This document shows positions 3,505 through 25,704 of a DNA stretch of 64,000 nucleotides, piece after piece. A program made the position numbers and the translations under genes. The notes under the pieces were generated by a model. The model had not been told where the DNA came from. It worked only from the letters and a program-made list of their open reading frames with translations, and did not search any database. The stretch lies in IMG/VR virus record IMGVR_UViG_3300048790_000078, positions 1-64,000 of that record. One strand, given 5' to 3'. How positions within the stretch are numbered: the stretch's first letter is position 1; each line of letters begins with the position of its first letter. Source of the stretch: a virus.

Positions 3505-4269
3505 CTATGTTCCCACCCGCTCCGTGGTGCCTTCCCAGATGAACTCGCCATCCGGACCGACCGGGAAGTGATTCCGGCATGCGCAGCACATCGTCCCGCC
3601 ATAGAACGAGGGATCTCGTGCGTACGTCTCCGCCAGCGCCTGGCCCATCGTGGTGACGGTGTTGCAACCCTTGCCGACCCGGTCGAGTTGCGCTTGCGTC
3701 CAAAAGCGACCGTTGATGGTCTCTCCATCCGGATATTGCTCCCACTTCACGTAGCCGAACCTGTCGGCGATATGGCGCTGCTTCTGCTCGTCGGTGAGGT
3801 CTGCCAGCGGATACTGCGGGCCTGGAGCTCCGACGTGGCTGTATGCGCGGCGCACGTGGCGCACAAAGCCTTTGGCGCGCTCCTCGGCGCTCAGGACCAC
3901 GTAGCCTTTCTGCTGGCCTGTCGCCGGGTTGATCTCCTTGTGGTCGTCGGTTACCGGCGAGCCGTCCGTCAGCGTCTGTGCGCTGCGGTCGACGGGGATA
4001 TACGCCCCCGCGATTGCTCGACGGGCTTGATCGTGCTCCTCCTTGCTGCGCTGGGACATAACGGCGAGGTAGTCGTTCACGATCCGCTCACTGGCGGCGT
4101 CGATGCGCGCGGCGTCCTTCTCCGGTTGCGGGCCGAGCGGACGCCGATTCAGCGCGTTCAACCGCTGTTCGAGTTCCTCAATACGGGTGTTTGAGTGGTT
4201 CGAGACTTCCCGCAGAGCGCATTCCACAAGCGCGAGGCGCTTTTCGAGATCTTCAATTGTTGATGGCAT
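3505..4269 (-). CDS. Hypothetical phage protein, coiled coil plus Cys/His-containing domain
   Basis: YVVLSAEERAKGFVR..TTM..AETYARDP.FY..T.C..C..HFPV. Confidence 0.55.
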   Translation of the reverse strand: MPSTIEDLEKRLALVECALREVSNHSNTRIEELEQRLNALNRRPLGPQPEKDAARIDAASERIVNDYLAVMSQRSKEEHDQARRAIAGAYIPVDRSAQTLTDGSPVTDDHKEINPATGQQKGYVVLSAEERAKGFVRHVRRAYSHVGAPGPQYPLADLTDEQKQRHIADRFGYVKWEQYPDGETINGRFWTQAQLDRVGKGCNTVTTMGQALAETYARDPSFYGGTMCCACRNHFPVGPDGEFIWEGTTERVGT

Positions 4270-4504
4270 TCTTCGCTTTCTTCGCTCGCCGGATGATGTC
4301 GATGGCTGGCGCGATCACATCCCGGTAGGCTGGTGATTGTTTGACGAATTCGAGTTCACGGGAGGTCAGCTTGCGGACGGTGCCGCTCTCGTACAGAGAA
4401 ACCTCTTCGCAGGATTCGCAGACGATCGGCGCCATCTCCGGGATCTCGTTCGATCCGGCGATAGCGAAGACCCCGAAGTGAAAGTCGCAGTGCGGGCAGT
4501 TCAT
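4253..4504 (-). CDS. Small zinc-ribbon protein
   Basis: CPHC..CESC; overlaps both neighbours. Confidence 0.5.
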   Translation of the reverse strand: MNCPHCDFHFGVFAIAGSNEIPEMAPIVCESCEEVSLYESGTVRKLTSRELEFVKQSPAYRDVIAPAIDIIRRAKKAKNAINN

Positions 4505-4965
4505 TTGCGCAAGGCTCCCGCCCAGGGCTGGTACGACTGCATCAACTCTTCGACATAGATGACGCCTTCCCTGGATTCACGACGGGTAACCGGCCAGATG
4601 ATCCGGTAGAAGTCATCGCCGACTATCGCGGCCTCAATCAGATTCGGCGGACGCGCTTCCGCCCAGGCGTACTTACTGACAATCGCAACGCGAGAACTCG
4701 GCAGATACGTGGCCGCTGCCGCCGCGCCAAGCACTCCGAGGAATCCGCGGCGCGAGTACCCGACCATCGCCAGGCCACGCACTTCCTGCTTTTCCTCCGG
4801 TTTTGAGGGGATCGGCATCGCCTTCGAACCGGGCCACCCTTTCGGGCCCGGCACATCCCTGTAATGGCAGGCATCGCCGTCCCGGCAGGGACACGAAGGA
4901 TCGTTCCCGATGCAGGGCTCTGGTTTCTTTGGCGCGAAGATGCGGCCGATGCGCTCGAAGATCAC
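4501..4965 (-). CDS. Hypothetical protein with Cys cluster, internal Tat-like motif and a C-terminus resembling the MCP C-terminus
   Basis: CIGNDPSCPCRDGDACHY; SRRGFLGVLGAAAAA; DDFYRIIWPV..GVIYVEELMQSYQP. Confidence 0.55.
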   Translation of the reverse strand: MIFERIGRIFAPKKPEPCIGNDPSCPCRDGDACHYRDVPGPKGWPGSKAMPIPSKPEEKQEVRGLAMVGYSRRGFLGVLGAAAAATYLPSSRVAIVSKYAWAEARPPNLIEAAIVGDDFYRIIWPVTRRESREGVIYVEELMQSYQPWAGALRK

Positions 4966-7362: not shown

Positions 7363-8196
7363 CTATTCTACCGCCGTTGCCGTCAGAAGTGGAGACTCTA
7401 CGATGTCCGGGTGCCATAGCGGGTTGATTCCGCCGTTTGCCTGGTGACGGTGCGATACCCAGTTGCACATCTCGATGAAGTCGTCGATCGACATCTTGTT
7501 TTTCCCGGCGTTGCAGCGCCCGCAACAGGAGACTGTATTCTCGACCGTATAGCCGATCTCGTTCTTGACTCGGTCGATGCCGTTGTACGGAAACTTGCCG
7601 TTGCCTCTGGTTCTGCCCGGCCGGTGGATCTGAACGGGAGCCACGCCGCAATAGAAACAGTCGCCTGAGAAAAGCTCGCGGCATTGTTCGTCGGTGAGGG
7701 AGAATTCGTACCCGCGATTGGTGGCTTGGGCGCGATAATTACTGATCAGGTCGTTGAGATTAGCCTCGCCGGGTGGCAGACTGTTCGCCGCAATCAGACG
7801 TTCGCGGTGGAGGCACCCACAGCTTTCCGATTCACCGAAGCGAAGCGTAGTCCCACTGACGGACTTTTCTGTGCCGCATTCGCATCTGCAAATCCAACGG
7901 GCGGCTTTGCCCTTGGAAATAGAATCGAAGCGGAGAACAGTCCATCGCCCATAGGTCTTGCCCGCCTCGTCCTTGCCGTAAAACTTGATTCCCTTGACCC
8001 TTAGGTTTGTGATCTGGCGGGCGCAGCCACAACCAGCACTTTTCCCGTTTCTCAGCTCAACGCCGGATACAGCACGCTCTGTCCCGCAGTCACATCGGCA
8101 CAACCAAAGCGTGTCATGCCGATGTCTGGGCTTGTCATCTTTTTTCAAAACCGACCACGCGCCGTAACGGTGGCCGGTTTCGTCGATCTGTCTCAT
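7363..8196 (-). CDS. HNH-type homing endonuclease
   Basis: Two W.C.C.CG..SCGC repeats; CFYCG..GIDR..GY..EN.VSCC..CN nuclease domain. Confidence 0.8.
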   Translation of the reverse strand: MRQIDETGHRYGAWSVLKKDDKPRHRHDTLWLCRCDCGTERAVSGVELRNGKSAGCGCARQITNLRVKGIKFYGKDEAGKTYGRWTVLRFDSISKGKAARWICRCECGTEKSVSGTTLRFGESESCGCLHRERLIAANSLPPGEANLNDLISNYRAQATNRGYEFSLTDEQCRELFSGDCFYCGVAPVQIHRPGRTRGNGKFPYNGIDRVKNEIGYTVENTVSCCGRCNAGKNKMSIDDFIEMCNWVSHRHQANGGINPLWHPDIVESPLLTATAVE

Positions 8197-8261: not shown

Positions 8262-9767
8262 TTAAGTGATCCCGGCGCCCAAATCTGAGATAAGTCCCAT
8301 AGAATAAGGGACATAAAGTTGCAAACACTGATCCGAGTAGATTCCGTTCTGCCACTGACGAGTCACTACCGGCCAGGCCACCATGAAGTAATCGCGGCGG
8401 GTGCGGACGGCGCGGGCGATGGGGATGTTGGCGGTCGGATAGGGGTTGACTTCGCAGTCGAAGAAGATGTACCCGTCTGGCATGTTGGGGTGAAGTTCGA
8501 CGGGGATGGGCTTGGCGCCGCCCCATGCGTACTTGTTGACGTACTGCTGGATGACCGAGGAACCGGTCAGGCCGCCCACAGATTCGACGTCGTTCGAGAG
8601 ATTGACGCGGAAGCCCATGTTGCCGGCCGAGGAAGCGGTGCCGACGTTGGCGACGCAGCGGGTCAGATCGCGGATGACCTGCGAGCCGACGTACATCCGG
8701 GTGGGAGACGTCTTGTACGTGTCCCAGAAGTATTTCAGGGCCGTTTCCACCTCGACGGCGCCATTGGCTCCATCGGGCGACAGTGTGCCGCCGGCCAGCG
8801 AGTTGTAGTACCCGTTGGCGGACAGGGCCTGGGGAATGAGGCCATCGAAGCTGTACTGGTTCTGCGACCAGTCGGTGCCGTTGCCGGTATAGGCTGCGGT
8901 CTGACCGGTGGAAGGCTGCGAAGTGATCGTGATGGTGCAGATCGAAGAGAAGCCGAAGAAGTAGGCATTGGCTGCGCCGGCCGAGGAACCGACGAACCAG
9001 GCGTACCCGGCGGCGCCCTTGGTGCCGGTGACGATTGCAGCGATCGAACCGACGCTGCTGGCGGAAGTGACCGAGATGCCGGCGGAAGCGGCCGACAGGA
9101 TGGCCGAGCCACCGTTGAAGGTGAGTGTGGTGCCATCGGCGTTGGGGCGGGAGACTGAGGTCACAACCGAACCGGCCGTCTTCGAAAGCGAGGCACCCTG
9201 AAGCGTCAGAGCGACGCAGTACACGTAATAGGTGCCGGTGGCGAGTGCGCCGCCCGTGCCAGATCCTGTTCCGGTCGGAGTCGCTGTGGTGCCGAGGGCG
9301 ATCCCGGTGGGACCGTTACCCCAGAGCAGCTTGGGCTCTTCGGAGAGGATGAGCGAGTCGAGCGCCGTCCGCTGCGCGATGCCGCGGATGTCGTCGTACC
9401 CTTCGCCGGCGTACTCGGCTTCCCACGTCACGGCGTTTTCGAGGCCGATCCCGTGATAGGTCGAGAGCTTGCCAGCCGTAGCCGGAGTGATGACCCCGCC
9501 GCGCTGCCCTTCACCAAGTTCCGAAGTGACGTTGTTGGTGTTCGGGTTGGTGATGATATTCCAGTGGACCGCGAGGCCCTGACCGGCTTCCCGTTTGCCG
9601 ATACGAGGCATGCGTTTGCGAATGGGCGCGATGACCGGATAGAGAAGCTTCGCCTCCGCCTCCAGGTCGTAAAAGACCAGCCCTTGACTGGTCGAGATTC
9701 CAGCTTTATTCAGTCCGCCGGTCCGGAGTTCGGCCAGCCGCTGAAGAGCGGCGCTATCGAAGTTCAT
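8262..9767 (-). CDS. Major capsid protein with Ig/Fn3-like insertion
   Basis: Follows protease and scaffold; strong RBS GGAAAGGAAGG; GL.FYDLE.EAKLLYP and EE..LLWGN motifs; 501 aa. Confidence 0.85.
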   Translation of the reverse strand: MNFDSAALQRLAELRTGGLNKAGISTSQGLVFYDLEAEAKLLYPVIAPIRKRMPRIGKREAGQGLAVHWNIITNPNTNNVTSELGEGQRGGVITPATAGKLSTYHGIGLENAVTWEAEYAGEGYDDIRGIAQRTALDSLILSEEPKLLWGNGPTGIALGTTATPTGTGSGTGGALATGTYYVYCVALTLQGASLSKTAGSVVTSVSRPNADGTTLTFNGGSAILSAASAGISVTSASSVGSIAAIVTGTKGAAGYAWFVGSSAGAANAYFFGFSSICTITITSQPSTGQTAAYTGNGTDWSQNQYSFDGLIPQALSANGYYNSLAGGTLSPDGANGAVEVETALKYFWDTYKTSPTRMYVGSQVIRDLTRCVANVGTASSAGNMGFRVNLSNDVESVGGLTGSSVIQQYVNKYAWGGAKPIPVELHPNMPDGYIFFDCEVNPYPTANIPIARAVRTRRDYFMVAWPVVTRQWQNGIYSDQCLQLYVPYSMGLISDLGAGIT

Positions 9768-12422: not shown

Positions 12423-12423
12423 G

Positions 12424-12666
12424 TTAGGCGCCGCCTTCCTCGGTAACTTCGACTTTCGGTGCTTCGATCTGAAGCGGTTCGTCGATCTCGACGGCAGTCA
12501 GCACGCAGGGAGGATCGAGATCCTCGACATTCGTGACGCGCAGCGCGGCGAACTGCCCGTGGCACTGGCCGCAGTCCGCATGAAGGTGGTTCGGCTGGGC
12601 TGGAACCGCGACGACTTCAACCGTCGCAGTGTGACTGCATTCGAGATCGACCGTGATGCGCTTCAT
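12424..12666 (-). CDS. Small Cys/His-containing protein
   Basis: LECSH..CGQC; coupled to neighbours. Confidence 0.45.
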   Translation of the reverse strand: MKRITVDLECSHTATVEVVAVPAQPNHLHADCGQCHGQFAALRVTNVEDLDPPCVLTAVEIDEPLQIEAPKVEVTEEGGA

Positions 12667-12668
12667 GA

Positions 12669-14114
12669 TTACTGGAGCACCTCGATGTGCAGGCTCAACA
12701 GGCGGACCGTGGTATCGGCTGCCACCAGCGGTTCGATTGCCAGCGTGTACCACTGCTGAGAGAACAGCCCGAGCGATCCGACCGCAGCGTTGCTGGTATC
12801 GGCGCCGACCGGGACAACCGTGCCGGCCGCGTAGGACGCGATGAACTGCGATTCAGGCTGAATCGACCCAACAGCGGTTGCGCCAACTGCGTTCGTTGTC
12901 ATCGTGCAGGTGAAATTCGTATCGGTATATGGCTGAGTTGCCCACACCACGCCGCTCACTGCGTTACAGACGGCGACGGGAAGTCCCGCCGTGACGCCGC
13001 CCGCCCAGCCGGTCATCAACTGAATGGAAAGCGTGCTCGACGCGCCGGCGGTCAGCAGGAGTTTGCCGGACACGCGAATCGTGCGCCCGATTACGTTCTG
13101 GAAGCCAGCGGGCAGATTGAAGCTGCCGAGAGGCGTAAGATCTGAAGCGGTTGCGCTGGCGATCGTGCCCGATCCGAACGGCCCATAATTGGTCTGGAAG
13201 CCGAAGCCAGGTTGCGCGGATGGCACGTAGCCGAAGGTCGTATGGCCCTGAGGTACCGGGTTGTTCGTATTGGTAACGCCGAGGGCGACCGGAGCCAGGT
13301 ACGTGGTCGTGGTGAAAGTCGTTGCCCAGGTACCGGTTGAAGTCAGGGCGCACGCGGCGATGGTGCTCACCAGCGTACTCAGCGTGCAGTTCGAAGAAGT
13401 TACCGGAAGCAGATACGAGGTCGCCGCGGAGGTGGTGCCAGCATACATTCGCCAGCCAACCGCGCCGGTCGCGCACGTCGGAGGAACTGGCACGGTCAGC
13501 GTGTAGTTGAGGGTCGGGGTCTGCGTGTAGTCGGCGGAGGCCGCACTTTCGCCGCCAAGCGCGTCAACGCATGTGGCCGTAAAGTGGGTCGAGGATGCCG
13601 CCCAGGTTCCAGTGGCCGAGGTGAAAACGATGTTCGTGGCCGTCAAGGTAGTCGGCGGCGCGATCACCGTCAGCGTGGTCGGCTGCATCGTGTAGAAGGA
13701 CGGCACTACGCCGTTCACGGATCTGTTGTCCCGGATCGTCACGTTCGAGAGTGGAGAGATGCCGGCGACGGTCGCATTGGTTCCGCCTGCGGTGGTCCAC
13801 GACTTGTCGATGATGACCTCGCCGCCACCGTTCGCGCCAACAGCGTTAACCGCTTCCTGGAGTCCGAACGTGGTGCTGGTGCTCGAAGCAAAATTGATCG
13901 CGTTGTTATTGTTGATTCCGGTCCAGAGGTTCGAGGTGGCTCCGCAGCCCAGGAGCGAAGATCCGTTCCATGTGAGAAGGGGGACGCCGACCTGATTGTT
14001 TGGTCCGAGACAGGGAGTGCCTGACGTCTGAGCCGAGGCGGGGACGGTCAGTGCCGCCATCAAGAAGAGCCCAACGAGGGCGGAGCGGAAGAGATTTGTC
14101 ATGTTCGAAACCAT
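12669..14114 (-). CDS. Thr/Gly/Ala-rich beta protein with Sec signal peptide (possible virion or surface protein)
   Basis: RBS AAAGGA; MTNLFRSALVGLFLMAALTVPASA|Q signal peptide. Confidence 0.65.
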   Translation of the reverse strand: MVSNMTNLFRSALVGLFLMAALTVPASAQTSGTPCLGPNNQVGVPLLTWNGSSLLGCGATSNLWTGINNNNAINFASSTSTTFGLQEAVNAVGANGGGEVIIDKSWTTAGGTNATVAGISPLSNVTIRDNRSVNGVVPSFYTMQPTTLTVIAPPTTLTATNIVFTSATGTWAASSTHFTATCVDALGGESAASADYTQTPTLNYTLTVPVPPTCATGAVGWRMYAGTTSAATSYLLPVTSSNCTLSTLVSTIAACALTSTGTWATTFTTTTYLAPVALGVTNTNNPVPQGHTTFGYVPSAQPGFGFQTNYGPFGSGTIASATASDLTPLGSFNLPAGFQNVIGRTIRVSGKLLLTAGASSTLSIQLMTGWAGGVTAGLPVAVCNAVSGVVWATQPYTDTNFTCTMTTNAVGATAVGSIQPESQFIASYAAGTVVPVGADTSNAAVGSLGLFSQQWYTLAIEPLVAADTTVRLLSLHIEVLQ

Positions 14115-14172
14115 CCTTTCAGTCTGGCGGCAGGAAGGATGGAATCGAAATCAGTTTACGACGAGAAGAATA

Positions 14173-14330
14173 ATGAACTTCTATCCGACTACACTAGCAT
14201 AGCCGCAATAGATTTTGAAGGGACTATCCCCGCAGCGCTCATCCCGAGCGCTTTGATATTCAGTCCAGAGTTGTGGTCGCGCCCGATTGTCAGCCCGCAG
14301 GAACAGGCGTGAATCCTGTCCGCCAGCGTC
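14173..14330 (-). ncRNA. Predicted omegaRNA/right end of the TnpB element
   Basis: TnpB omegaRNAs overlap the ORF 3' end; GAAGTTCA at about 14174-14181 resembles a right-end boundary; limits approximate. Confidence 0.35.
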
Positions 14331-15310
14331 TTCGGAACGACCGCACCGCAACCGGAACATCTCTGAGAAGTGCCGCGCGGATTCACCGGTACAGCCCATT
14401 TACCGGCGCTTTCAGCCTTGTAAATGATGCACCAGATCAACAGCCCCCAGGCGGCGTCCATGATCGATTTGGAAAGCTGGCGGTTGGCCGCCATGTTCTT
14501 TATTTTCAGGTCTTCGAAGGCGATCAGGTCATAGTTTTCGACCAGCCGCTTCGAGATGTGATGCAGGTAGTTCCTGCGGGCATCGGCAGCCCGTTGGTGA
14601 GCCCGGCGTAGCGTTTCAACCGTGCGCACTCGATTCTTCGATCGGCGCTGCTTCGTCGCCAGCCGCCGACCGGCCGCCGCGATCCGCGATTCATGTTTCC
14701 GCGTCCAGCGCGGATTCTCGATAACCGTCCCATCGCTCAACGTCGCGAGCGCGGTCAGACCAACGTCGATGCCAACCGGATTTGATACCGCGCATTTCTC
14801 TGGCGCGGGGCCTATGTCGCAGACAACCGAAGCGGTCCAGCGCTTGCCGTCACGCCTGATGGTGCAGGTTTTCGGCGTCCCGCTGATCGGGCGATTGCTG
14901 CGCGTACGGATATCACCGATAAGCGGAATCTTTATGGAGTGAGCGCGCACGACAGGATGGTGGTCGGCCAAAGTAAACGAGTTGTACCTCGACTTTGACC
15001 TGAAACGAGGATAGCCCGGCGTCTGGCCATTTCTTGAGCGCAGGAAAAACGCTTTGAATGCGCGATCCACGCGCCGTAATGGGTCGCGTTGTATCTCAGC
15101 GGCAATCCATTGAAACTGCGGGTCTTTCCTGAGATCGGAAATCTGCTTATATTGATCGTACAGGCTGATCGATTTGCGCTGCAATTTCCAGGCGTCACGC
15201 CGTTCTTGAAGAGCTGCATTATAAGTTTCGCAATTGTCCAGAAGGATGCGCTCTAGAGCTGAGCGCTCGCCAGCATTCGGCAACATCCTGAACTGATAAG
15301 TGCGAAACAT
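14189..15310 (-). mobile_element. tnpB: IS200/IS605-family TnpB RNA-guided endonuclease (solo, no TnpA)
   Basis: RTYQFRM.P N-terminus, YN.AL, GYPRFRS; RuvC motifs GIDVG, FEDL, RDHN; TSQRCSGCG..CSCG zinc finger. Confidence 0.92.
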
Positions 15311-15319
15311 GCGAAACGG

Positions 15320-15652
15320 TCACTGACCGATGCGCTGAGATTCGAGCTGCTGCAGTTGGCCCTGAAGCAAATTCAGTTCGCTCTGAGCTGAGCCGTGGGC
15401 GTCGGAAGCCATCGTGAAATCGTTCCGCACTTTGCCTTCTTTCATGCGGGCGGCCTTGAGCATTTCCTGAGCTTCAGCCACGTCGGCAGTGGCCTTGGCG
15501 ACCTCAACGCGCAGCGCATCGAAAGCCTCACGCCGAGCCTGGACTTTCGCCAGCGCGGCTTTGATGTTGGCCTTCAATTGGCTTTTCCGCTGTTCGTTCA
15601 GAGGGCCCTGCTGAAGGGGAATGGCTTGCTGTGTCTGCTGCGTGGTGATCAT
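15320..15652 (-). CDS. Coiled-coil hypothetical protein
   Basis: Heptad pattern; TAAATT 7 nt upstream of ATG. Confidence 0.55.
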   Translation of the reverse strand: MITTQQTQQAIPLQQGPLNEQRKSQLKANIKAALAKVQARREAFDALRVEVAKATADVAEAQEMLKAARMKEGKVRNDFTMASDAHGSAQSELNLLQGQLQQLESQRIGQ

Positions 15653-15657
15653 GGCTT

Positions 15658-15999
15658 CTAATTTACCACCGGTGGCGGCTCTTCGGCGGGAGGCTCATCG
15701 TCATCGGCGCCGGGCGCGGCAGCCGCGGGGACGGGCTCCTCGACCGGTTTCACTGGCAGCAACCGAAGCACGATCGTCTGGGCGGAGACAGCGCAGAGAA
15801 CGACTTGCCGCATACATCCGCCACAGATAGAAGGCCCGCAATGCTCCAGCACGATGATGCTGGTCTGAGGCAGATTCTGGAAGCGCGGCGGTTTGCATTC
15901 AACGCGGTTGACGTGACCGCATTCGCAGGGCACGTCGTACATGTTTGGGTCGGATGGAGCGGCGGGAAGGCCGGTTCGCGGATCGAGGATGGGAATCAC
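15658..15999 (-). CDS. Cys-containing hypothetical protein
   Basis: CECGH..CGGC; TATCAT 7 nt upstream of GTG. Confidence 0.5.
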   Translation of the reverse strand: MIPILDPRTGLPAAPSDPNMYDVPCECGHVNRVECKPPRFQNLPQTSIIVLEHCGPSICGGCMRQVVLCAVSAQTIVLRLLPVKPVEEPVPAAAAPGADDDEPPAEEPPPVVN

Positions 16000-16004
16000 G
16001 AAGT

Positions 16005-16313
16005 CTATGATACAGCAGACTCAACGGGAGTTGTCGGGTCCAGTTCCTCGCCCTGTTCTGCCAGCCATTCCTCCATTGAAGGAATCTTGTCCACGTCAGC
16101 CGGCGCGGAATCGACAGGCTCTTCTGGATGGTCGGCCTCGTACTGCGTCCCGGCTTTGATCATGGCGGCCAGCGTCGCGCGGTCCTGCTTGTCCTGCTCA
16201 TCCATCAGTTCATCCCAGTCGGATTGCGAGACGAAGTCTGGTTTGAGTTTATTCAATTCTGCCCGCAATGCGAGCCTGTGGGTGTCGTCGCTATTTGTAC
16301 TGGTAGCTTCCAC
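16005..16313 (-). CDS. Small acidic hypothetical protein
   Basis: D/E-rich; overlaps the end of the polyprotein gene. Confidence 0.45.
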   Translation of the reverse strand: MEATSTNSDDTHRLALRAELNKLKPDFVSQSDWDELMDEQDKQDRATLAAMIKAGTQYEADHPEEPVDSAPADVDKIPSMEEWLAEQGEELDPTTPVESAVS

Positions 16314-18558
16314 GATAACTTTCCTTCGCCGTTGGATTTTGCCAGCCGATATTTCCGTGGAACCCGCTGAAAACGTAAACGTCTGCGGTCTTTGTGTCCG
16401 TGTTGATGATCGTTGCCACCGTCAGGCCTGTGTACTTGCTTCCGGTCGCCTTGCTGGCCTGCTTCACCAGATTGGTCTTACGAAACAGGATCGCTTGCCG
16501 GAGTCGATCATTGAAGATCTTCTTCTCTGCTGCGGTTTTAAGCGCGAGGTAGGCTTTGGATGGACGTCCGATCTTGGCTACCCACTGCTGCGCGCCCTTC
16601 GAATTGCTGACCAGCCCGGCTTTTGATTCGACCAGCTTGTGGTCCGCAATGATGTCCACAGGATCTGAATCGGCTGTCGATTTGCCGGGCCGGAGCGGAC
16701 TCGCCTTCTTGCACCCGGGAATGTATTGCCGCGCGTACTGGATGGCGATCTTCTCTCCAAGTTCGCCGGTGCCGAGTTTGGATGCGCCGGTTTTCAGAGG
16801 AACCGGATCGCCGTGAAACACGCTACTGGCGGCTGGTTTGAGTGTTATGCCTGTCTCGAATGGAGATTCCGCGAACTTGCCGTCCGGCCCGTGGTTCGGG
16901 TTGAACTTGAAAAGCAGCGTGCCTTCGACGGCTTTTTCTGTAATAACCGCTTCCGGGTCGGTCGAAACAATGGTTGCCGCCTCTTCGACTGCGGACATCG
17001 GATAACGGCACTCATGGTCTGCAGGCGCTGCCTTTGTCACCACTTTATCCGACACCGTTTTGCCTGATTTCCAATCCGCGAAGATGGACTTCAAAGGCTT
17101 CAATCCTCCAGTCAAATCTCTCCCTGAAGTGTGCGCCATGAACGCCTCAGCGACCATCTCGCCAGGACTTGTTTTGGCATATTTCGTGAGAGTCCAGTTT
17201 TCTTTATCGGCAAAGACCTTGTTGACCAGCAGGCGATGTGGGTTTTCGATGATTTTCTGCCCTGGGCTCGGGATCGAATGCGAACCGCGTTGACTGTAAA
17301 TCTCGTCGAGATGGTGACCGTACTCGTGGTACAGGACAGCAGACGCCCCCGGGCCCTGCATGCCGCCCGTCTTGAACAGGTCCCGATTTATCTCTATACC
17401 TCCCCATGAAGTATGTCGGCCAGCCAAATCTTCCGGCATATCGGAAGACACAGAAAGTTCCTTTATCGCCGGAGCTTTCGGGTAGTCCTTGCGCAGTTTT
17501 TCAACTGCCCTGACGATAGACTTGGCCCGCCAATCGTCGATATCTCCGAGGTGGACCTTTTGAGCGAAACCCGTCTTTACAATCGCCTTCTCACTGGCAG
17601 AATTACTGCCTCCGCCGCTGGAAAACTCTCCATCGGAAGGGTCATGGTTGGGATTGAACTTCTCCAGTGCGCAGAGCAGCGTCCCCTTCACCGCTGCCGT
17701 GGTCATCTCTTTGCCAGCGCGGATCTCTTCGTCTTCGTCCTCGACGCCGACACCATAGGGGTCTTCGGACCGGTCGCTCGCGGCGGTCTTCGCATTGTCT
17801 GCCGCCGACACGCCGACATCTCCGGCACCGGACAGCGGGCTCGTGACCTGGGGATCGTCGAACTTCTTGCTGCCGATCGACTCCGGAGCCGGCAGGTTGC
17901 CGGGCCGTGTTGTCGGGTTGGTTTCATCCGGCGTCGACTCGATGCCTTGCGTGCTGACTTCCGGATCGCCTGTACCGGGCGCGGAGCATGACTCGCAGGT
18001 CTGTGCCGCTGCTGGCTTTCTTTCGCCGCACTTCGGGCATACGGTTACCGATTTCACCATCTTGTCGTAGGGGAGCGGCCAGGAAGATTTCTGGCGGTCC
18101 ACGTACAGGATTGCCTGTTCGAGTTTGTTGCGCCCGGTGCGCGCACCGGCGGGCCCGGCCTTGATGCTGAGGTATGGCTCGGGGTCGATTCCCGCGCGCC
18201 CGGCGATTCTCCTGATCGAGGCTACCGACAGGCGGGACATCGAAGATCCGCCATACGTGCCGTCTCCGATGAGAGATTCGTCGAGCACGCCAATTGGACG
18301 GGGCGACTTTCTTCCTCCCATGGCAGGTTGGCTTCTGGCTGTAGAAGACCACGCCCGGCTTGATACTTCTTTCAATTCCTCTGAAGTAAACCCACCAGAT
18401 GAGAACTCTCCTTTTTCGTCATGGTTCGGATTGAATTTCTCGACCCCAACACACAGCAGAACCTTGCCGACTGCGGTAAAAACTTCTGGGTGCGCCAGAA
18501 CCGGCACAGGCACGAACTCTTCAGCGAACGACTCGTGGAAACGATCATATTGAGGCAT
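16291..18558 (-). CDS. Multidomain head-associated polyprotein: three FNPNH modules, zinc ribbon, zincin metallopeptidase, PD-(D/E)XK-like nuclease
   Basis: KFNPNH three times; CPKC..CESC; HEYGH..YA....E..AEAF; GELGE..PVD..VESK. Confidence 0.7.
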   Translation of the reverse strand: MPQYDRFHESFAEEFVPVPVLAHPEVFTAVGKVLLCVGVEKFNPNHDEKGEFSSGGFTSEELKEVSSRAWSSTARSQPAMGGRKSPRPIGVLDESLIGDGTYGGSSMSRLSVASIRRIAGRAGIDPEPYLSIKAGPAGARTGRNKLEQAILYVDRQKSSWPLPYDKMVKSVTVCPKCGERKPAAAQTCESCSAPGTGDPEVSTQGIESTPDETNPTTRPGNLPAPESIGSKKFDDPQVTSPLSGAGDVGVSAADNAKTAASDRSEDPYGVGVEDEDEEIRAGKEMTTAAVKGTLLCALEKFNPNHDPSDGEFSSGGGSNSASEKAIVKTGFAQKVHLGDIDDWRAKSIVRAVEKLRKDYPKAPAIKELSVSSDMPEDLAGRHTSWGGIEINRDLFKTGGMQGPGASAVLYHEYGHHLDEIYSQRGSHSIPSPGQKIIENPHRLLVNKVFADKENWTLTKYAKTSPGEMVAEAFMAHTSGRDLTGGLKPLKSIFADWKSGKTVSDKVVTKAAPADHECRYPMSAVEEAATIVSTDPEAVITEKAVEGTLLFKFNPNHGPDGKFAESPFETGITLKPAASSVFHGDPVPLKTGASKLGTGELGEKIAIQYARQYIPGCKKASPLRPGKSTADSDPVDIIADHKLVESKAGLVSNSKGAQQWVAKIGRPSKAYLALKTAAEKKIFNDRLRQAILFRKTNLVKQASKATGSKYTGLTVATIINTDTKTADVYVFSGFHGNIGWQNPTAKESYRGSYQYK

Positions 18559-19906
18559 GGATTACCTTCCCATCGGAGTGCTTTTCGATCGACTTCACGC
18601 GAAGCTGTGTCTTTGGATTGAAGACTATCTCGTTTTCGTCACCGCGTAGCGCCAGGCCGGAATGCCCCTTCGGAACGTCAATTGCGAAGATCACCTTCGG
18701 ATCGTCGCTCATTGGTGAGAGGGCACCAAACTCACTGGCTATCGATGGACTTGTTGACGTGCTGAAGAATCCACGCTTCGTGATTACGTCTCCGACCTTT
18801 ATGCTATTGAGTTCCCCTTGTGTTATTCGCGGGCCATGGAAGACCGTGATGCCTTCCGGAAGGGACTGTTTCGATATTAGTGACTGCAACCGCTCAACGT
18901 GCGCGGCTTCTGAAGCGGCCTGAGAGGCAGTAACCTTCACGGGAGGCTTCGGGGTCCATACGGATTTCCCGTCTGGCCCTGCTTTGTAACTGCCTCCGCC
19001 CTGCCTGGTTGTCTCGCCACGTAAGGAAGCATTCATCCCGCGCCACCCTTCGTCCTGATAGTGGAGCGCGGTTTTAAGTTCCTTGGTGGTGCCTGCGACC
19101 TGGTCGCCGATGATCGAATCTCCGTTACCGAGAAGTTTACGATAAGCGGAATCGGCCGCCGCCTCGTGATTGGACATCGCCTGTTCCACGGTGATGCTGG
19201 CGGGCGAATACGTCTTACTGCCTGAGAGCCCTTCCGAGAAGCGCCCGTCCTGCCCATGATTTGGATTGAACTTCTCAACTCCGGTCGGCCCGGTGAGCAT
19301 GACCTTTGTCTTCGTGCCGTCCTTCGAGGAGATCGTCAGCGAGTCCACTTGCAGCGTGAGGCCGGCGACCGAGTCTTCGCCTATCCACTGATCCGCGGCG
19401 GCCGGGTCGATATAGGCGAGGGTGAGGTGGGGCTGGTACTTGAAGTCCTCGACCGTGAACGCCCCATGTTCCGCGAGCGCGGCGTTGAGGAGAACCAGTT
19501 CGGGCGATTCCACATCCACCACGACAATCGCCGCCCCCTCTGCGCCAACTGCTTTGGCAATGCTGCCGTCCGCGGCGAACACCATCGTTTTCCCGAGCGT
19601 GATTGTGAACGGTGCTTGCTCTGCCAGGAAGGCTGCAATCCGCGTTTCACTTTCCGAGTCTTCGATGCCGTAACGCAATGTGACATGAAGGTTTTCATCC
19701 GGCGTGCGTCCCTTCGCCATCAGGTCTTCGTCCGGGATCTCATCCCGCAGCGCGCGGAGTTGCTGGCCAGCTTCCGATTGCGGATCCACGTCGAACTGCA
19801 CGCTGCCGTAGGAGTACTTCAGGAGATCAAGGCTGCAAAGGAACCCTGTTCCGGTGCCGTCCACAAATGAGACAGACACGTTCTCGACGGCGCAGAGCAG
19901 GCTCAT
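18545..19906 (-). CDS. 2H phosphoesterase (Acb1/LigT-like) fused to an ADP-ribosyltransferase
   Basis: HVTL and HLTL (two HxT motifs); KFNPNH linker; Y..EGW..MN..LR, FSTS and ENE motifs of R-S-E ARTs. Confidence 0.8.
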   Translation of the reverse strand: MSLLCAVENVSVSFVDGTGTGFLCSLDLLKYSYGSVQFDVDPQSEAGQQLRALRDEIPDEDLMAKGRTPDENLHVTLRYGIEDSESETRIAAFLAEQAPFTITLGKTMVFAADGSIAKAVGAEGAAIVVVDVESPELVLLNAALAEHGAFTVEDFKYQPHLTLAYIDPAAADQWIGEDSVAGLTLQVDSLTISSKDGTKTKVMLTGPTGVEKFNPNHGQDGRFSEGLSGSKTYSPASITVEQAMSNHEAAADSAYRKLLGNGDSIIGDQVAGTTKELKTALHYQDEGWRGMNASLRGETTRQGGGSYKAGPDGKSVWTPKPPVKVTASQAASEAAHVERLQSLISKQSLPEGITVFHGPRITQGELNSIKVGDVITKRGFFSTSTSPSIASEFGALSPMSDDPKVIFAIDVPKGHSGLALRGDENEIVFNPKTQLRVKSIEKHSDGKVIHASI

Positions 19907-20124
19907 AAACCGTAAACCCTCCGGTATTTCTGCTTCGTCTCTTCCGAAGTCGGATAGACGCGGTCACCATGGCAGAGCCAGCATGTGTCCAGTTCCGGCG
20001 CGTCAGAGTTGCAGGCTGGACAGAGATTGCGCCTGATCCTGCCCGCAGCCTGCCTGGCAATCAGGAAACGCCGTATGCGCTCGAAAGTCCGCCGCCAAAC
20101 CGAACTGGTGAGTCTCACGGGCAC
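19903..20124 (-). CDS. Small zinc-finger protein
   Basis: CPAC..CWLC. Confidence 0.45.
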   Translation of the reverse strand: MPVRLTSSVWRRTFERIRRFLIARQAAGRIRRNLCPACNSDAPELDTCWLCHGDRVYPTSEETKQKYRRVYGL

Positions 20125-20459
20125 TCCATGTAACCGAATGTCAGCTCATCAGTTGTGGCCGGTGTTCCCTTCCCCCTGAGCAACACGATGCAGCACTCCG
20201 GCGGGCACTCATCGGCGATCTGCGCCCACGTCCGCTCCTCGGTGGAGTTCGTCCGGCGGATGAGTCGGTCAGTCTGTTCGGTTGCCAGTGCCCGGCACCA
20301 GGACGGCCCGACATACGTCACCTTTGGCTGGACAGTGTACGTCTCCCAGAAGTATTTCAGCGCAGCGTCGATCTCGCCGTTGACCCGCTGGGATATGCGG
20401 TCGCGGCGCTCTGGCGGCATGGCGTCGAGCAACTCCGTAAAGTTTCGCGTCCCTTCCAT
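20115..20459 (-). CDS. Hypothetical moron containing an MCP-like segment
   Basis: ALKYFWETY..P...YVG matches the MCP; TACACT 6 nt upstream of ATG 20459. Confidence 0.55.
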   Translation of the reverse strand: MEGTRNFTELLDAMPPERRDRISQRVNGEIDAALKYFWETYTVQPKVTYVGPSWCRALATEQTDRLIRRTNSTEERTWAQIADECPPECCIVLLRGKGTPATTDELTFGYMECP

Positions 20460-20481
20460 GCGTACAGTGTACCCGAAACGC

Positions 20482-20511
20482 AAAACAGCCTCCCGTGTTA
20501 CCGGAAGGCTG
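20482..20511 (-). terminator. Intrinsic terminator
   Basis: CAGCCTTCCG-GTAACA-CGGGAGGCTG followed by TTTT on the minus strand. Confidence 0.65.
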
Positions 20512-20547
20512 CGAGGATTTCAGAATGGCCAAAACCAGCGGTGAGGT

Positions 20548-20829
20548 CTATGCTGACGGTGCCTGAAGAAACGTCACCAAAGCGTTCACGTCGCTTTGAA
20601 GTTGTAGCGCCGAAGGCAGCAGTGCCGCTGAATCGGCGTTCAGTTGAGTGGTGGCTGACGTCAGCCCGGCTTGAGCGGCAGTCAGTGCGGCCTGCGCGGT
20701 GTTAACCTGCGCGGACGCATTGGCTACTGCGGTTTCGTCGTTTGCGATTGCGGTTTGGGCGCTCGCGAAAGTTTGCTCATCGGCAGCAACCGCTGCCAGC
20801 AGAGAAGCAAGAGATGGTGAAGGTGACAT
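20548..20829 (-). CDS. Ala-rich coiled-coil moron
   Basis: TATGCT 7 nt upstream of ATG 20829; terminator downstream. Confidence 0.5.
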   Translation of the reverse strand: MSPSPSLASLLAAVAADEQTFASAQTAIANDETAVANASAQVNTAQAALTAAQAGLTSATTQLNADSAALLPSALQLQSDVNALVTFLQAPSA

Positions 20830-20842
20830 CGGCTTCAGCATA

Positions 20843-21703
20843 TCAGGAAATTGACCGGGCAAGCCCGAAGATCGTCGCGTCCTTCGTCAGATCGAACACA
20901 CTGACGGCCTTCGTTGGTCGGATCGTGGTGGCCTTGCCACCGGTCTCCAGTTCGTCCAGGTAGTCCACGTCGAGGTCTTCGTTGGCGCGGACAGCGCCAA
21001 GCACACACAGGCAGCGCGGGTGGAACGCAGGGCCAAAGCCGAGTCCATTGAAGTTGCTGTCCAGATCGACCACGCCGTAACTTTCTGCTTCGTCACATGC
21101 GCATGGCTGTTCGTGCTCAGGGGACAGGATGACGTACTTCCCGGTGACCACGCCCGACGCGCGCCACGCTGCCAGATGTCCCTTTGTTGCCGCCCGCCGG
21201 CTCTCGTTGTCCGCGATTAGCGCCGACCGCTCCGAAGAAAAAGCGTACTGCGAAAGCAATTCCTCGGTCATCCGCGCCGTGTCGATCTCATCGATCTCGC
21301 CTTCGGTGAAGGCTTCGAGTACGTTCGACACCGCCTTGCCAATTCCCTCTTCGGTCAGATCGGTGATTGGCCAGTGCGCTTCTGGGTCGGCCGCCAGCAC
21401 GCCGTTCAGCCACTGCTTCCCAACCATCGAAGCCGCCCGGTCCTTCGCCCACTTCGCGATTTCGGCTTTGGCTTCGTTCAGGATGGCGGGGTCTTTGATT
21501 CCGAGCTGGCGCAACGCGGCTTCGGCATTGTCGTAGCCGACTTCGGCCAAAGCTTTCGCCACCTGCTCGACGATGGCTTCGAAGGGCTCGTTGATGTCCG
21601 CGATCGCCTGGCCGGTGGCGAAGGCGGCGTCCGGCGTCATCTGCAGGGCCTTGGTCGACGTCTGCGCCGCGGCGTTGCCGGCCCGCAACAGAGCCTGATC
21701 CAC
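20843..21703 (-). CDS. MuF/SPP1 gp7-like minor head protein (frame open up to the portal A9 run)
   Basis: FS.ERS.LIA.NE..RA, AWRASGVV.GK, C.CD, PAFHPRC.C signature. Confidence 0.85.
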   Translation of the reverse strand: MDQALLRAGNAAAQTSTKALQMTPDAAFATGQAIADINEPFEAIVEQVAKALAEVGYDNAEAALRQLGIKDPAILNEAKAEIAKWAKDRAASMVGKQWLNGVLAADPEAHWPITDLTEEGIGKAVSNVLEAFTEGEIDEIDTARMTEELLSQYAFSSERSALIADNESRRAATKGHLAAWRASGVVTGKYVILSPEHEQPCACDEAESYGVVDLDSNFNGLGFGPAFHPRCLCVLGAVRANEDLDVDYLDELETGGKATTIRPTKAVSVFDLTKDATIFGLARSIS

Positions 21704-21750: not shown

Positions 21751-24700
21751 CTAATAGGGAGTCAGCAGTTTTTTTTTACGGAGAACCTGCTGGCCCGGCG
21801 CCGACAGCAACAGCTTGATCGTGGCTTGTTCGCCCGAGGCCTTCTCCCCTTGCGATTGCTCACCGCCGCCCGCTTCACCAGCGCCAATCTGCTTCTGTCC
21901 TCCGCCTGGCGCTGGTGGATGCAGAGCATTTTGCGCATTCGCCTGCGCCTGAGCGATCCCCGTCGCGAAAGGAGTATAGACGCCGGTTGCACCGTTGAGA
22001 ACGCCTGGTGGCAGGCCGAACGGATCATTGCCATCGTCCTCGCGGACTTCGTCGATCTGCAGCGTGCCGTTCTTCAGCTTGATGTCCTGAATCTGTGCCT
22101 GCTTCAGCGGATCCGGATCGGAGTCGAGATCGAAGTGCGCCGACACGCCAGGGATCTTCATGCCTTCCCGCGCGATCCGCGTCATCAGCGCTTCCAGCCA
22201 TTCGAGGTCGCCCATCGTGCCTTCTTCACGGGCGCTGTCGGCGTTCGACTGAGAGGTCGACCGGTTGAGCTGGCGGATGTAAGGCGTCGGCGAAATGTTC
22301 AGCGCATCGCAGAAGATCCGCGCCAGCCATTCATCGAAGTCGTCCTTCAACATCGCGCCCTTCGTCTCGAATGGCGAGGCTCCGGTGTGCGGGATGAACT
22401 TCACGCGGCGCCGCTTCGCGAGGTTGCCGGCAGCCTGATCGAAGATATCCTGGAATCGGCCGATCTGCAGTTCAGTCCACGTCTCCGGGACCTGGATGAT
22501 CATCTCCGGTGTGTTGCCGCTCGTGAAGTACTCGGTCTGGCTGACCATTCGATTGACGGCCATCACGGCGTAATCGAGACAACTCTGAACAGGAGAATTC
22601 CCACACCAAGATGGCTTGCCGTTGCGACGAACATACACGATTCCGTTCGGCACGGTGACGCAATGTATCGTTCCTGCGTAATGAACGGTCTTGGCGGTGA
22701 CCGACATCGCCGTCGAGTGACGCTCTGATACGACGAAACTTTCCCTACACGCTGACGTATATGGCTTTCCTCCATTTGGGAAAACGGTCTCGCATGGCGG
22801 TCTTCGACGAGTAGATGCCGAGAACCCCAGTTTTTGCGCGATCTCCACAAGGTCGGATTCCAATTTATGGCTAACAGTCGTAGCTCTCCAGGCGCTTCGC
22901 GGGTGTTTCCCGCGCCCTGATTTACTCGGCCTTTTTTCCAGGCCGCCATCTCCGGCCATGTAAAACTCCCAGAAAATACGCAGCTGGCGGGCCGTTGCTC
23001 CCTTAACTGCCAACGGCACATACTTGTCCGCCGCCTTGCCGAACGCTGCAAAGTAGCGCCCGACTTGCGCGTAACTGCAAATAAAGGCGTGCCCGTTGTA
23101 GCCGTCTTTCCCTGTGAGATTGATGCGCTTTAACAAAGCACTGAACACAGGGAACGCGGGAGATTTGGCGTCTTGATTTATTTCGATTCCTCCGGCAGAG
23201 CGCAGATTTCCTTCTGCCAGATATGCGCCAATCAAAGCACAGAAGTCATCGCCGCTTATCGAGAGAGACCGTTCCTTCGGTTTGGTTTTCGGGAAGTCGA
23301 CCATTCCTATCTCGACGCCACCGGACCAGACTGACGTGACGGGAATCTTTCGGACTGGGTTGTTTCCCTTCTGGAGCTCGGCCGCAGTCATTATTTTTTC
23401 GTAACGGCGACTCGTCTCCAGCCTGCCTGTCGGAGCCTCCACGAGCATTCTGTGCTCCGGCGTCACCATGATGTCCATGGATCGAGCGGTAAAGTGAATC
23501 ATCTCGCCGTCTCTGTCGTAATGGTGAATCGCGCTCGGGCGCTCCCATTCAAATTCTTTCGTGAGGGTGTTTCTGGTAGCTACCCGCTCCCCGTGCAGCA
23601 GATTCCGAAATAGTTGAAAACCTCTCGTCTCGGTCAGGATTTCCGTCTGATCGTCGTAACACTGCCCGTAAAGGAATGGCGCGCGCGGGTTTTGCACCGA
23701 ATAGAACAGCGGCATGCAGGTGCCGTCAACGCTCCGACCGTTCACGACGATCGTGTGATACCCATTCGTCTGGCACGACGGGCACTCGCCGGAGGTCATG
23801 TTCACCGATGGAGAATTACCGCACCACGCCGGTTTTCCGTTTCGACGCACATAGAGATTGCCATTCGGGACTGTCGCGCAATAGACCATGCCTGAGTAAT
23901 CAACGGTGCTTATATCTGGCAGGCATGTCTCTTTTTGAGACCGGAAACCTACGACGTAGTGGACTCCGCGATTGATCACGCGGCGTTCACCGTCTTCGAA
24001 AATTTCACTCTGTGTCGCCGGCTCTGTCCTGATAGAAGCCGACTTTCCAAGCTTAAGGGCGATCTCCTGAATTTGATCCGCAAGGCGCTTGCTGCTGGTC
24101 GAACATCGATCACGTCCAGCGTGCCCATCACCGAGGTGGAAGAATCTCCAAAAAATTCCCAGTTGCCTGCGCGTTGCGTTCATAACAACGTCCGGAATCC
24201 ACTTGTCGGTGGCGTGACCGAACTGCTTCAGATAGCGAATTAAGCTGACGGAATTGAAGACGTATGAATTTTCAATCCTACGCGTCCTGTTGCCTGTCAC
24301 TCGCTTCAGAAGTTCACCGTATTCGATGTCTCCGCGTCCGCCGTGGATTTGTGAAATAGCAACGACTGCGCCGCGAGGATCATCATTGCACGATCCCTCT
24401 GCCATGTAAGCCCCCATGAAGGCGCAGAAATCGTCTCCAGACATCGTGATCGGCAGGATGTCTTTTGGTTGGCGCCGTCTTCCACGAACAGAAATTACGG
24501 TAACGGCTTGATGCGCGGCGGCGAGGCTCAGCCCACACTTGGCTGCGATCTGCGAATACGAATCGCCGGCAGAGCGAAGATCCACGGCTTTCTGATCGAC
24601 AACAAGCCGAGCGAAATGCTTGTCGTCTTCGCGGCGGGGGAATCGCTGCGGGCCAATTTCAGTGCCATCCCATCCCGCCGTAAGCGGTACCCGTGTTGAA

Positions 24701-25704
24701 ACCGTATAGTTTGCAGCAAGATCATCGGCGCGCAAGAATAAACCCGTCGCAGTTCTTTCGGCTTGACGGAAGAGACTATGAGGAACCCGGGTCACCATCA
24801 TCCGGTGGTTGGGCGTAACAAGCAAGTCAACAAAACGAGACCCGAAAGACTGCATCGGACCGTCATACATGTACCCTGTCAAATCGGTAGGCGCTTGCCA
24901 CTCCAGAGAGCCAGCAGCGTTTCTTGTCGCGAATTCATCACTTTTGCTGGCCGCACTCCACGGTAGCCACCCGCGGCGTGTGAGAACTTCGCTGTCTTCC
25001 GAATAGCACCCCTTGATCTGCTGAGCATAGGCGGGGTTCGGCGCGTTCGGGGACCAGCCCTGTTCGTCCCACATCAATTTGATCGTGGCGCCGTCGAGAA
25101 TGCGGAGTGATTTGCAGACCCTCTGATCGTCCATCACCGGCCAGATGGCGAGCGCGTCGATCACGAGCACCTCTTCGAGCAGCATGCTCAGCCACGCCAT
25201 CCAGTCATGCTCCTGGTCTGGCTTCTCAAAGAACCGCGTCAGGTATTGCACGCGGGGATCGGCGGCCGACCGCTTGTCGAAGTCCTTCGACTTCTCGCCG
25301 GGCAGCTTATCAACCTTCCAGACCAGCGGGATCTTGACGATCTGCCGCTTCCGGCGGTTGATACAGAGGCGCATCACGTTGACAGCATCGGCGAACGCGC
25401 GAAGCTGCGGGAAGCTCGGGCCGCCCTGCTCTGTCCGAGGCTGAGAGTTCATGTTCAGCGTCATCGGATAGTCGGTCACGCGGGGAAGCGTGCCGGGAGG
25501 TGCCTGAGGCTTCAGCGGTTGCCCGGGCCCGAAGTATGACGCGCCGGTCACCGTGTCGATGTAGTCGCGCGCCACGTCGATGAACGACACCGTCCGCGGG
25601 TCGACCTGCACGGTCAGGGCGTTAGCGGGGATCGACGGCAGCCCGGTCTTTGTTCCTTCGAAGGCGCCTGTGGCGGCATCGAGAGCTTTTGCGAGGATAC
25701 TCAT
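21751..25704 (-). CDS. Portal protein with two inteins (about 564 aa after splicing)
   Basis: F.QLRAFAD, L.ILDGATIK, P.PAY.Q.IKG, YG.SP, YFT.GNTP portal motifs. Confidence 0.9.
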   Translation of the reverse strand: MSILAKALDAATGAFEGTKTGLPSIPANALTVQVDPRTVSFIDVARDYIDTVTGASYFGPGQPLKPQAPPGTLPRVTDYPMTLNMNSQPRTEQGGPSFPQLRAFADAVNVMRLCINRRKRQIVKIPLVWKVDKLPGEKSKDFDKRSAADPRVQYLTRFFEKPDQEHDWMAWLSMLLEEVLVIDALAIWPVMDDQRVCKSLRILDGATIKLMWDEQGWSPNAPNPAYAQQIKGCYSEDSEVLTRRGWLPWSAASKSDEFATRNAAGSLEWQAPTDLTGYMYDGPMQSFGSRFVDLLVTPNHRMMVTRVPHSLFRQAERTATGLFLRADDLAANYTVSTRVPLTAGWDGTEIGPQRFPRREDDKHFARLVVDQKAVDLRSAGDSYSQIAAKCGLSLAAAHQAVTVISVRGRRRQPKDILPITMSGDDFCAFMGAYMAEGSCNDDPRGAVVAISQIHGGRGDIEYGELLKRVTGNRTRRIENSYVFNSVSLIRYLKQFGHATDKWIPDVVMNATRRQLGIFWRFFHLGDGHAGRDRCSTSSKRLADQIQEIALKLGKSASIRTEPATQSEIFEDGERRVINRGVHYVVGFRSQKETCLPDISTVDYSGMVYCATVPNGNLYVRRNGKPAWCGNSPSVNMTSGECPSCQTNGYHTIVVNGRSVDGTCMPLFYSVQNPRAPFLYGQCYDDQTEILTETRGFQLFRNLLHGERVATRNTLTKEFEWERPSAIHHYDRDGEMIHFTARSMDIMVTPEHRMLVEAPTGRLETSRRYEKIMTAAELQKGNNPVRKIPVTSVWSGGVEIGMVDFPKTKPKERSLSISGDDFCALIGAYLAEGNLRSAGGIEINQDAKSPAFPVFSALLKRINLTGKDGYNGHAFICSYAQVGRYFAAFGKAADKYVPLAVKGATARQLRIFWEFYMAGDGGLEKRPSKSGRGKHPRSAWRATTVSHKLESDLVEIAQKLGFSASTRRRPPCETVFPNGGKPYTSACRESFVVSERHSTAMSVTAKTVHYAGTIHCVTVPNGIVYVRRNGKPSWCGNSPVQSCLDYAVMAVNRMVSQTEYFTSGNTPEMIIQVPETWTELQIGRFQDIFDQAAGNLAKRRRVKFIPHTGASPFETKGAMLKDDFDEWLARIFCDALNISPTPYIRQLNRSTSQSNADSAREEGTMGDLEWLEALMTRIAREGMKIPGVSAHFDLDSDPDPLKQAQIQDIKLKNGTLQIDEVREDDGNDPFGLPPGVLNGATGVYTPFATGIAQAQANAQNALHPPAPGGGQKQIGAGEAGGGEQSQGEKASGEQATIKLLLSAPGQQVLRKKKLLTPY
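22597..23661 (-). mobile_element. Intein 2 in portal (355 aa, LAGLIDADG endonuclease)
   Basis: Q|CYDDQTEILT..VRRNGKPSWCGN|S; LIGAYLAEGN and YMAGDG. Confidence 0.9.
23815..25008 (-). mobile_element. Intein 1 in portal (398 aa, LAGLIDADG endonuclease)
   Basis: G|CYSEDSEVLT..VRRNGKPAWCGN|S; FMGAYMAEGS and FHLGDG. Confidence 0.9.

Follow-up and report, generated by a model that had tools for sequence, protein, structure and literature searches.

Capsid proteins are known triggers of bacterial immunity: Lit responds to the Gol region of T4 gp23, and CapRel is a second case. Major capsid proteins (MCPs) are also targets of the host immune sensors Avs7/Dsr1, together with EF-Tu (PMC13581612). In all of these systems the recognised element is a short, highly conserved MCP stretch, as is the element considered here, and a stand-alone copy of such a stretch is therefore a plausible decoy; the difference is that their segment acts from within the full MCP. 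We know of no phage-encoded free copy of an MCP segment described for Gol/Lit, CapRel or Avs7/Dsr1, and our literature search found no paper on a phage gene that offers free copies of recognised capsid segments.

Capsid-derived products with an export signal have a precedent in the hepatitis B precore protein, or e-antigen, in which a signal peptide followed by capsid-protein sequence yields a secreted, non-assembling capsid derivative. We draw on it as an analogy only: it belongs to a eukaryotic virus, contains the whole core domain, takes the Sec/ER route, has its effect on adaptive immunity and has no evolutionary link to phage genes. Among phage satellites, the capsid-binding proteins P4 Sid, SaPI CpmB and PLE TcaP have been demonstrated to redirect capsid size (PMC10945586, PMC12409344). 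They provide the comparison of small accessory proteins acting on a tailed-phage MCP, but they are encoded by the satellite rather than by the phage and are not derived from MCP sequence.

Here we describe frag1, a short ORF of a phage whose genome (G000) is an IMG/VR virus record of 86,259 bp, linear and estimated to be 76% complete. The window, that is, the whole stretch of 64,000 nucleotides that was analysed, is part of this record. Judging from sequence comparison, frag1 is probably a real accessory gene that arose from a design of leader plus capsid piece, with a second ORF of the window, frag2, as its partner (Table 1). Neither capsid-fragment genes nor Tat-tagged phage mini-proteins were described in the literature that we searched.

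Table 1. Features of the two fragment genes, of the capsid gene and of their surroundings, in window coordinates.
Feature	Position	Strand	Details and support
83-aa zinc-ribbon ORF	4253..4504	-	start overlaps frag2 stop (ATGA)
frag2	4501..4965	-	154-aa ORF; GTG at 4965; GAGGAG Shine-Dalgarno 5 nt before
MCP-derived part of frag2, residues 96-152	4510..4680	-	BLASTP, hhalign
MCP (predicted HK97 fold), 514 aa	8262..9806	-	phrog_13692, E 8e-95; AF2; Foldseek; gene position
MCP region copied in frag2, residues 423-505	8292..8540	-	C-terminal hairpin region
MCP segment copied in frag1, residues 350-381	8664..8759	-	BLASTP, six-frame search, hhalign, model
73-aa CxxC...CxxC zinc-ribbon ORF	19903..20124	-	overlaps frag1 stop and start of next gene
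frag1	20115..20459	-	114 aa; ATG at 20459; stop at 20115-20117 (stop codon included)
MCP-derived segment of frag1, residues 27-58	20286..20381	-	hhalign and BLASTP
17-nt exact word TCCCAGAAGTATTTCAG	20344..20360	.	identical to 8722-8738
-10-like hexamer TACACT	20466..20471	-	6 nt 5' of frag1 ATG
Terminator-like hairpin	20485..20512	-	11 bp, 7 G-C; T-rich tail; 3' of upstream 104-aa ORF

The capsid-like segment of frag1

frag1 matches nothing significantly in Pfam, PHROGs, PADLOC or NCBIfam, its region has no Rfam match to a non-coding RNA, and no close match at the DNA or protein level was found among GenBank phages. From its coding character it looks like a real gene: of the six reading frames, that of frag1 scores best in codon usage, its GC3 is 0.79 (0.65-0.78 in large virion genes), and both GC3 and codon use are typical across the whole ORF, beyond the copied part too. 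The AF2 model of its product is poor, with a pLDDT of 53.

The MCP gene lies in an order of terminase, portal, prohead protease, scaffold-like protein, MCP and head-tail adaptor. The AF2 model of the protein, built on 38 relatives, reaches a pLDDT of 79.8 and matches the capsids of SPO1, Pa223, SU10 and HK97, as well as encapsulins, with Foldseek E values down to 4.5e-9. Going by this model, the 514-residue protein is a genuine HK97-fold MCP.

BLASTP aligns residues 29-58 of frag1 with MCP residues 352-381, with 15/30 identities and an E value of 4e-8. When all six frames of the 86-kb record are searched, the MCP site is the only other match (E 1.3e-5). At the profile level, a family of three small proteins of the frag1 type matches the MCP family over 32 columns, with a probability of 96.4% and an E value of 1.1e-9 (hhalign profile-profile comparison), and an HMM of the small family picks the same MCP position in most related MCP loci. 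In the MCP model, the copied segment comprises helix 351-364, strand 370-373 and helix 375-386, which we take, by known HK97 topology, to be the helix-strand-helix of the A-domain. The preliminary description had called the ORF a diverged internal fragment of the phage's own MCP and had pointed to 17 identical bp in the two genes; the first claim is borne out, with significant profile similarity, and the second is exact.

The 17-nt word TCCCAGAAGTATTTCAG is the sole word of at least 16 nt common to the frag1 region and the rest of the genome; we put the chance expectation for such an exact word at about 0.004. In the 90-nt core, frag1 and the MCP gene agree at 55 nt, distributed over codon positions 1, 2 and 3 as 21/30, 20/30 and 14/30. 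Because of this pattern, we regard the copy as old and kept at the protein level, not as a recent duplication.

E, L, W and P, found in all three frag1-type proteins, occupy invariant or nearly invariant MCP-family positions. Across 38 MCPs, W361 and D362 are invariant, and E352, L357, K358, P368 and S375 nearly so; among the five closest MCPs, the core ALKYFWD does not vary. Of all 30-residue stretches of the MCP, 469-498 and 339-368 rank second and third in conservation, and the copied pieces fall there. Among the 38 MCPs, the segments of frag1 and of its relative P0002 are closest to those of the clade that contains G000 and two related phages, G001 and G002.

This homology is local, to the conserved A-domain helix-strand-helix: with no PHROG match and only 32 columns in hhalign, frag1 is not a full-length member of the MCP family (PHROG 13692), and the MCP-derived share amounts to only about 32 of its 114 residues. 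Unlike HK97-fold MCPs, it has no N-arm, E-loop, P-domain or complete A-domain, and therefore cannot form a shell. Its Cys-rich C-terminal half is unrelated, no MCP similarity having been found in it; reading this half as a contracted copy of MCP residues 382-514 was rejected at an hhalign probability of 0.1%.

Relatives, a second fragment gene and leader-like N-termini

A search for stand-alone homologues, named as a check in the preliminary description, was rewarded with two. Exhaustive phmmer comparison with 1.84 billion representatives of about 15 billion proteins returned only P0002, a protein of 130 aa that is 51% identical to frag1 across residues 25-114 (E 6.4e-15). The second, P0003, has 66 aa and is encoded in G001, a complete 56-kb relative whose MCP is 63% identical to that of G000. 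A profile word search over 5.8 billion clusters at 90% identity gave three frag1-type proteins in all. The family is thus tiny, with three sequences from the two very large protein searches together; scans of viral, metagenome and genome contigs gave no further small homologues, and five further related phage records have the MCP only, with no fragment gene.

P0002 and frag1 have in common the MCP-like segment and also a C-terminal part, in which the five cysteines occupy the same positions. In ENA metagenomes P0002 is represented by four variants with at least 90% identity, of which one occurs on 8 contigs and each of the rest on a single contig; there are no frame breaks, and all cysteines are retained across different samples. 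P0003 matches frag1 in the N-terminal region and the MCP-like segment only and has no Cys tail.

The second ORF, frag2, consists of a Cys-rich N-terminal part, the motif SRRGFL with an Ala/Gly-rich hydrophobic stretch (residues 71-88), and a contracted copy of the MCP C-terminus. This copy corresponds to MCP residues 423-505, with E values of 6e-7 in BLASTP and 2.9e-5 in hhalign; a search for other frag2-type sequences returned the query alone. In G000, both frag1 and frag2 lie in blocks that are absent from G001 and G002, and for this reason we consider them optional. frag1 is in this sense a small optional phage gene with a segment homologous to the phage's own MCP.

If the Shine-Dalgarno start of frag2 is used, its residues 1-66 (4768-4965) present a CxxxxxxCxC...CH cluster ahead of the RRGFL hydrophobic stretch. 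With the same start, this stretch would anchor the protein in the membrane and would not be a leader that is cleaved off.

The relative G001 has a pair of its own. When all ORFs shorter than 330 aa in 85 loci were compared with an HMM of 38 MCPs, four matched and no others: the two fragment ORFs of G000 and the two of G001. G001 frag2, a 128-aa ORF at L007:1052-1438, stands directly before P0003 (G001 frag1) and overlaps it; it matches the last 49 MCP residues with a probability of 97.9% and an E value of 3.7e-13, in a match that reaches the final MCP residue. Side by side, the two genes form a 604-bp cassette bounded by a 17-nt direct repeat, CGCGCGATAATC and 5 further nt, at L007:1035-1051 and L007:1639-1655 (15/17 identical, 604 nt spacing). 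The repeat contains GATAAT, each copy is placed 6-9 nt before a start codon, and its 12-mer core is found nowhere else in the 56-kb genome. Either a leaderless-type promoter was duplicated here, or the repeat is the scar of an insertion.

The tail of G001 frag2 (residues 66-128) is weakly similar to the middle of the adaptor that is encoded next after the MCP (E 0.007-0.06 over all comparisons, 0.007-0.02 with BLASTP). Such a tail could stem from a captured MCP-to-adaptor junction that underwent internal deletions. We did not accept the tail as a head-tail connector fragment, the similarity being weak only.

A Tat-like leader, with a twin-arginine motif and then a hydrophobic stretch, is seen in three of the five proteins. 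P0002 starts with SRR, followed by an Ala-rich hydrophobic stretch with an AxA-like end; G001 frag2 has NRRAFF and a hydrophobic stretch behind it; the third is frag2. In G001 frag1 the motif is TRRGFL and the hydrophobic stretch is weak. Two leader models were used, Pfam TAT_signal (PF10518) and NCBIfam TIGR01409, and all scores are below the curated cut-offs: frag2 reaches 18.3 bits against 22.7 with the former and 16.0 against 16.7 with the latter, P0002 a Tat-model score of 16 bits. The likeness to Tat signal peptides and small Tat substrates thus lies in the S/T-R-R-x-F-L-type motifs of P0002, frag2 and the G001 genes, and the differences lie in these scores, in the missing leader of frag1 and in the position of the frag2 motif, which is internal if the Shine-Dalgarno start is used. 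No significant match was found for the leaders as copies of another virion protein.

frag1 itself has no twin arginine with a hydrophobic stretch and no Tat-model match; averaged over 12 residues, its hydropathy peaks at 1.02, at residue 85. Aligned with P0002, frag1 shows a 15-column gap where the P0002 leader has its hydrophobic core, and the flanks (M...R and A-V/M-P-P) line up. The N-terminal alignment is weak, and suggests that the core was deleted in frag1. The absence of a leader could mean decay rather than a new location.

Gene neighbourhood and rival origins

From the layout of the genes, frag1 is the apparent first cistron of a co-directional overlapping operon behind a terminator-like hairpin. 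It overlaps the zinc-ribbon ORF, which in turn overlaps a 2H-phosphoesterase/ADP-ribosyltransferase gene, and hence it is not an isolated moron; no terminator was found downstream of it. The preliminary description had proposed a moron with an upstream terminator and its own -10-like hexamer. The 11-bp hairpin agrees with the terminator. The moron stands as far as the gene is absent at the same position in G001 and G002 and follows a hairpin, but not as a free-standing unit, since it heads an overlapping operon. As for the hexamer, TACACT is present, but a consensus scan called no sigma-70 promoter upstream of frag1. Its layout is shared with G001, GATAAT, 6 nt and ATG there and TACACT, 6 nt and ATG here, from which we infer that the messages may be leaderless.

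The block that bears frag1, an extra 9.3 kb or so between portal and prohead protease within 10845-21703 of the window, is specific to G000: nothing is found there in G001 and G002, where the portal directly adjoins the protease. It comprises a MuF-like gene, the 104-aa Ala/Gln-rich ORF, frag1, the zinc ribbon, the 2H-phosphoesterase/ADP-ribosyltransferase fusion, a 755-aa ORF, a transposase and a 481-aa ORF. The fusion (18545-19906) is a protein of 453 aa that joins a 2H phosphoesterase part (2_5_RNA_ligase2, E 9e-11; weak Acb1) to an ADP-ribosyltransferase (ADPrib_exo_Tox, E 1.5e-8), and may be a packaged effector. The transposase gene (14189-15310; phrog_506, E 5e-90) is located within the head-gene module. 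The portal ORF (21751-25704) has 1317 aa, with the portal match confined to residues ~1020-1295; other portions match PHROGs named thymidylate synthase and ribonucleotide reductase. Such a composition fits inserted intein or endonuclease modules.

Each capsid-fragment gene overlaps a small downstream ORF, either a zinc ribbon (19903-20124, 4253-4504) or an HNH ORF (L007:1657-2007). The latter, in G001, encodes a true HNH endonuclease, with a match to Pfam HNH at E 4e-9, and neither 19903-20124 nor 4253-4504 has an HNH match in Pfam. We rejected the three ORFs as one mobile cassette: they show no significant mutual similarity. In G000, another HNH endonuclease gene (7363-8196; phrog_374, E 1e-28) lies next to the MCP gene on its downstream side; in G001 this place is without a gene.

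The preliminary description had offered three candidate readings of frag1: a capsid decoy, an assembly interference factor and a recombination relic. The fragments may be relics, left behind by illegitimate recombination or by gene conversion that an endonuclease drove around the capsid gene, and kept open mainly for translational coupling to the zinc-ribbon and HNH ORFs, with frag1 decaying after the loss of its leader. This reading, which we find unlikely, draws on the overlap of every fragment gene with such an ORF, the intact HNH gene directly after the MCP, the direct repeat that bounds the G001 cassette, the G001 frag2 match that runs to the very last MCP residue before a weakly adaptor-like tail, the missing frag1 leader and the great rarity of the family. 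The conserved homologue weakens it, as do the existence of frag2 and the fact that a related phage has both kinds of gene as a pair. A relic would hardly be expected to have a 51% identical homologue with an unbroken frame and all of its cysteines across samples, nor GC3 and codon use typical over the whole ORF; third-position divergence marks the copy as old, yet it is still open. In addition, leader-like N-termini recur, and the three downstream ORFs have no detectable relation to each other.

The sole element common to the three frag1-type proteins is the leader region with the MCP piece, and the 66-aa version of G001 does without the Cys tail. Both facts count against exaptation, in which the 32 MCP-derived residues were raw material, a helix-strand scaffold for a functional Cys-rich protein, metal- or disulfide-bonded, whose job is unrelated to capsids. 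So do the retention of MCP-invariant or nearly invariant residues and the second, unrelated gene, which contains a copy of a different conserved piece of the MCP and accompanies the first in G001. Although the small MCP-like share of frag1, the conserved CPxxCC...C tail with no similarity to MCP and the lack of a family match in the four databases searched are what exaptation would predict, we judge it improbable.

A chance or convergent short-motif similarity, with no common origin with the MCP, is nearly excluded: the match is short (30-32 residues), but its pairwise, six-frame and profile E values, the recurrence of the same position in most related MCP loci, the 17-nt exact word and the closeness to MCPs of the same clade all oppose it. 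Equally hard to credit is an XRE/HigA-type antitoxin or small DNA-binding regulator, which the preliminary description had read by eye from the N-terminal residues and which finds, beyond sub-threshold HTH-like leads in the ESM Atlas (scores 0.76-0.78, meaningful level 0.9; P0002 has no usable match there), no HTH (HTH_3, HTH_31, HTH_37) or antitoxin match in Pfam, NCBIfam or PADLOC at E up to 0.1-1, no significant match among PDB sequences (conotoxin-like CPPxCC and Myb being noise) and no evident toxin-like neighbour, the frag1 N-terminus aligning instead with the P0002 leader region, its hydrophobic core missing.

Mimicry of the capsid surface as a candidate role

We now propose a reading in which two optional genes carry captured capsid pieces and their product acts as an MCP mimic; taken as a whole, its prospects of being right or wrong appear evenly balanced. 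The captured pieces are the A-domain helix-strand-helix (350-381) in frag1 and the C-terminal hairpin region (423-505) in frag2. The older design would be a Tat-type leader followed by the capsid piece, as in P0002, frag2 and both G001 genes; frag1 appears to have lost the hydrophobic core of its leader, and its product should stay cytoplasmic.

The mimic would engage whatever normally docks on the copied MCP element. One candidate partner is a host factor that recognises the MCP, which would give frag1 a decoy or anti-defence role; the other is the MCP itself or its folding intermediates, in which case assembly would be modulated. Mimicry of the MCP surface is the best-supported mechanism because the capsid piece is the conserved core, among the most conserved parts of the MCP. 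That the frag1 product does work as a mimic of this highly conserved surface is nevertheless a tentative proposal, somewhat short of an even chance. Against it, it is not obvious what a capsid mimic would bind once exported from the cytoplasm. PADLOC gave no match for the ORFs examined.

A broader conjecture, which we consider rather doubtful, would place frag1 and frag2 in a widespread and undescribed class of phage mini-proteins, in which a Tat-type leader precedes the most conserved portions of core virion proteins and the product serves as a decoy for capsid-recognising host receptors. Forms with a leader would drag receptors, or surplus decoy, to the Tat translocon or the membrane, and the leader-less frag1 would act in the cytoplasm. 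The two pieces, which both come from the C-terminal third of the MCP chain and are close together there, may pair into a split mini-domain.

Altogether, of the three capsid stretches that are most conserved, two are copied by a pair of optional genes, for the most part behind leaders of the export type; this points to an undescribed counter-measure or to assembly control. Should the genes be neutral, they would still record the capture and movement of structural-gene fragments within phage genomes.
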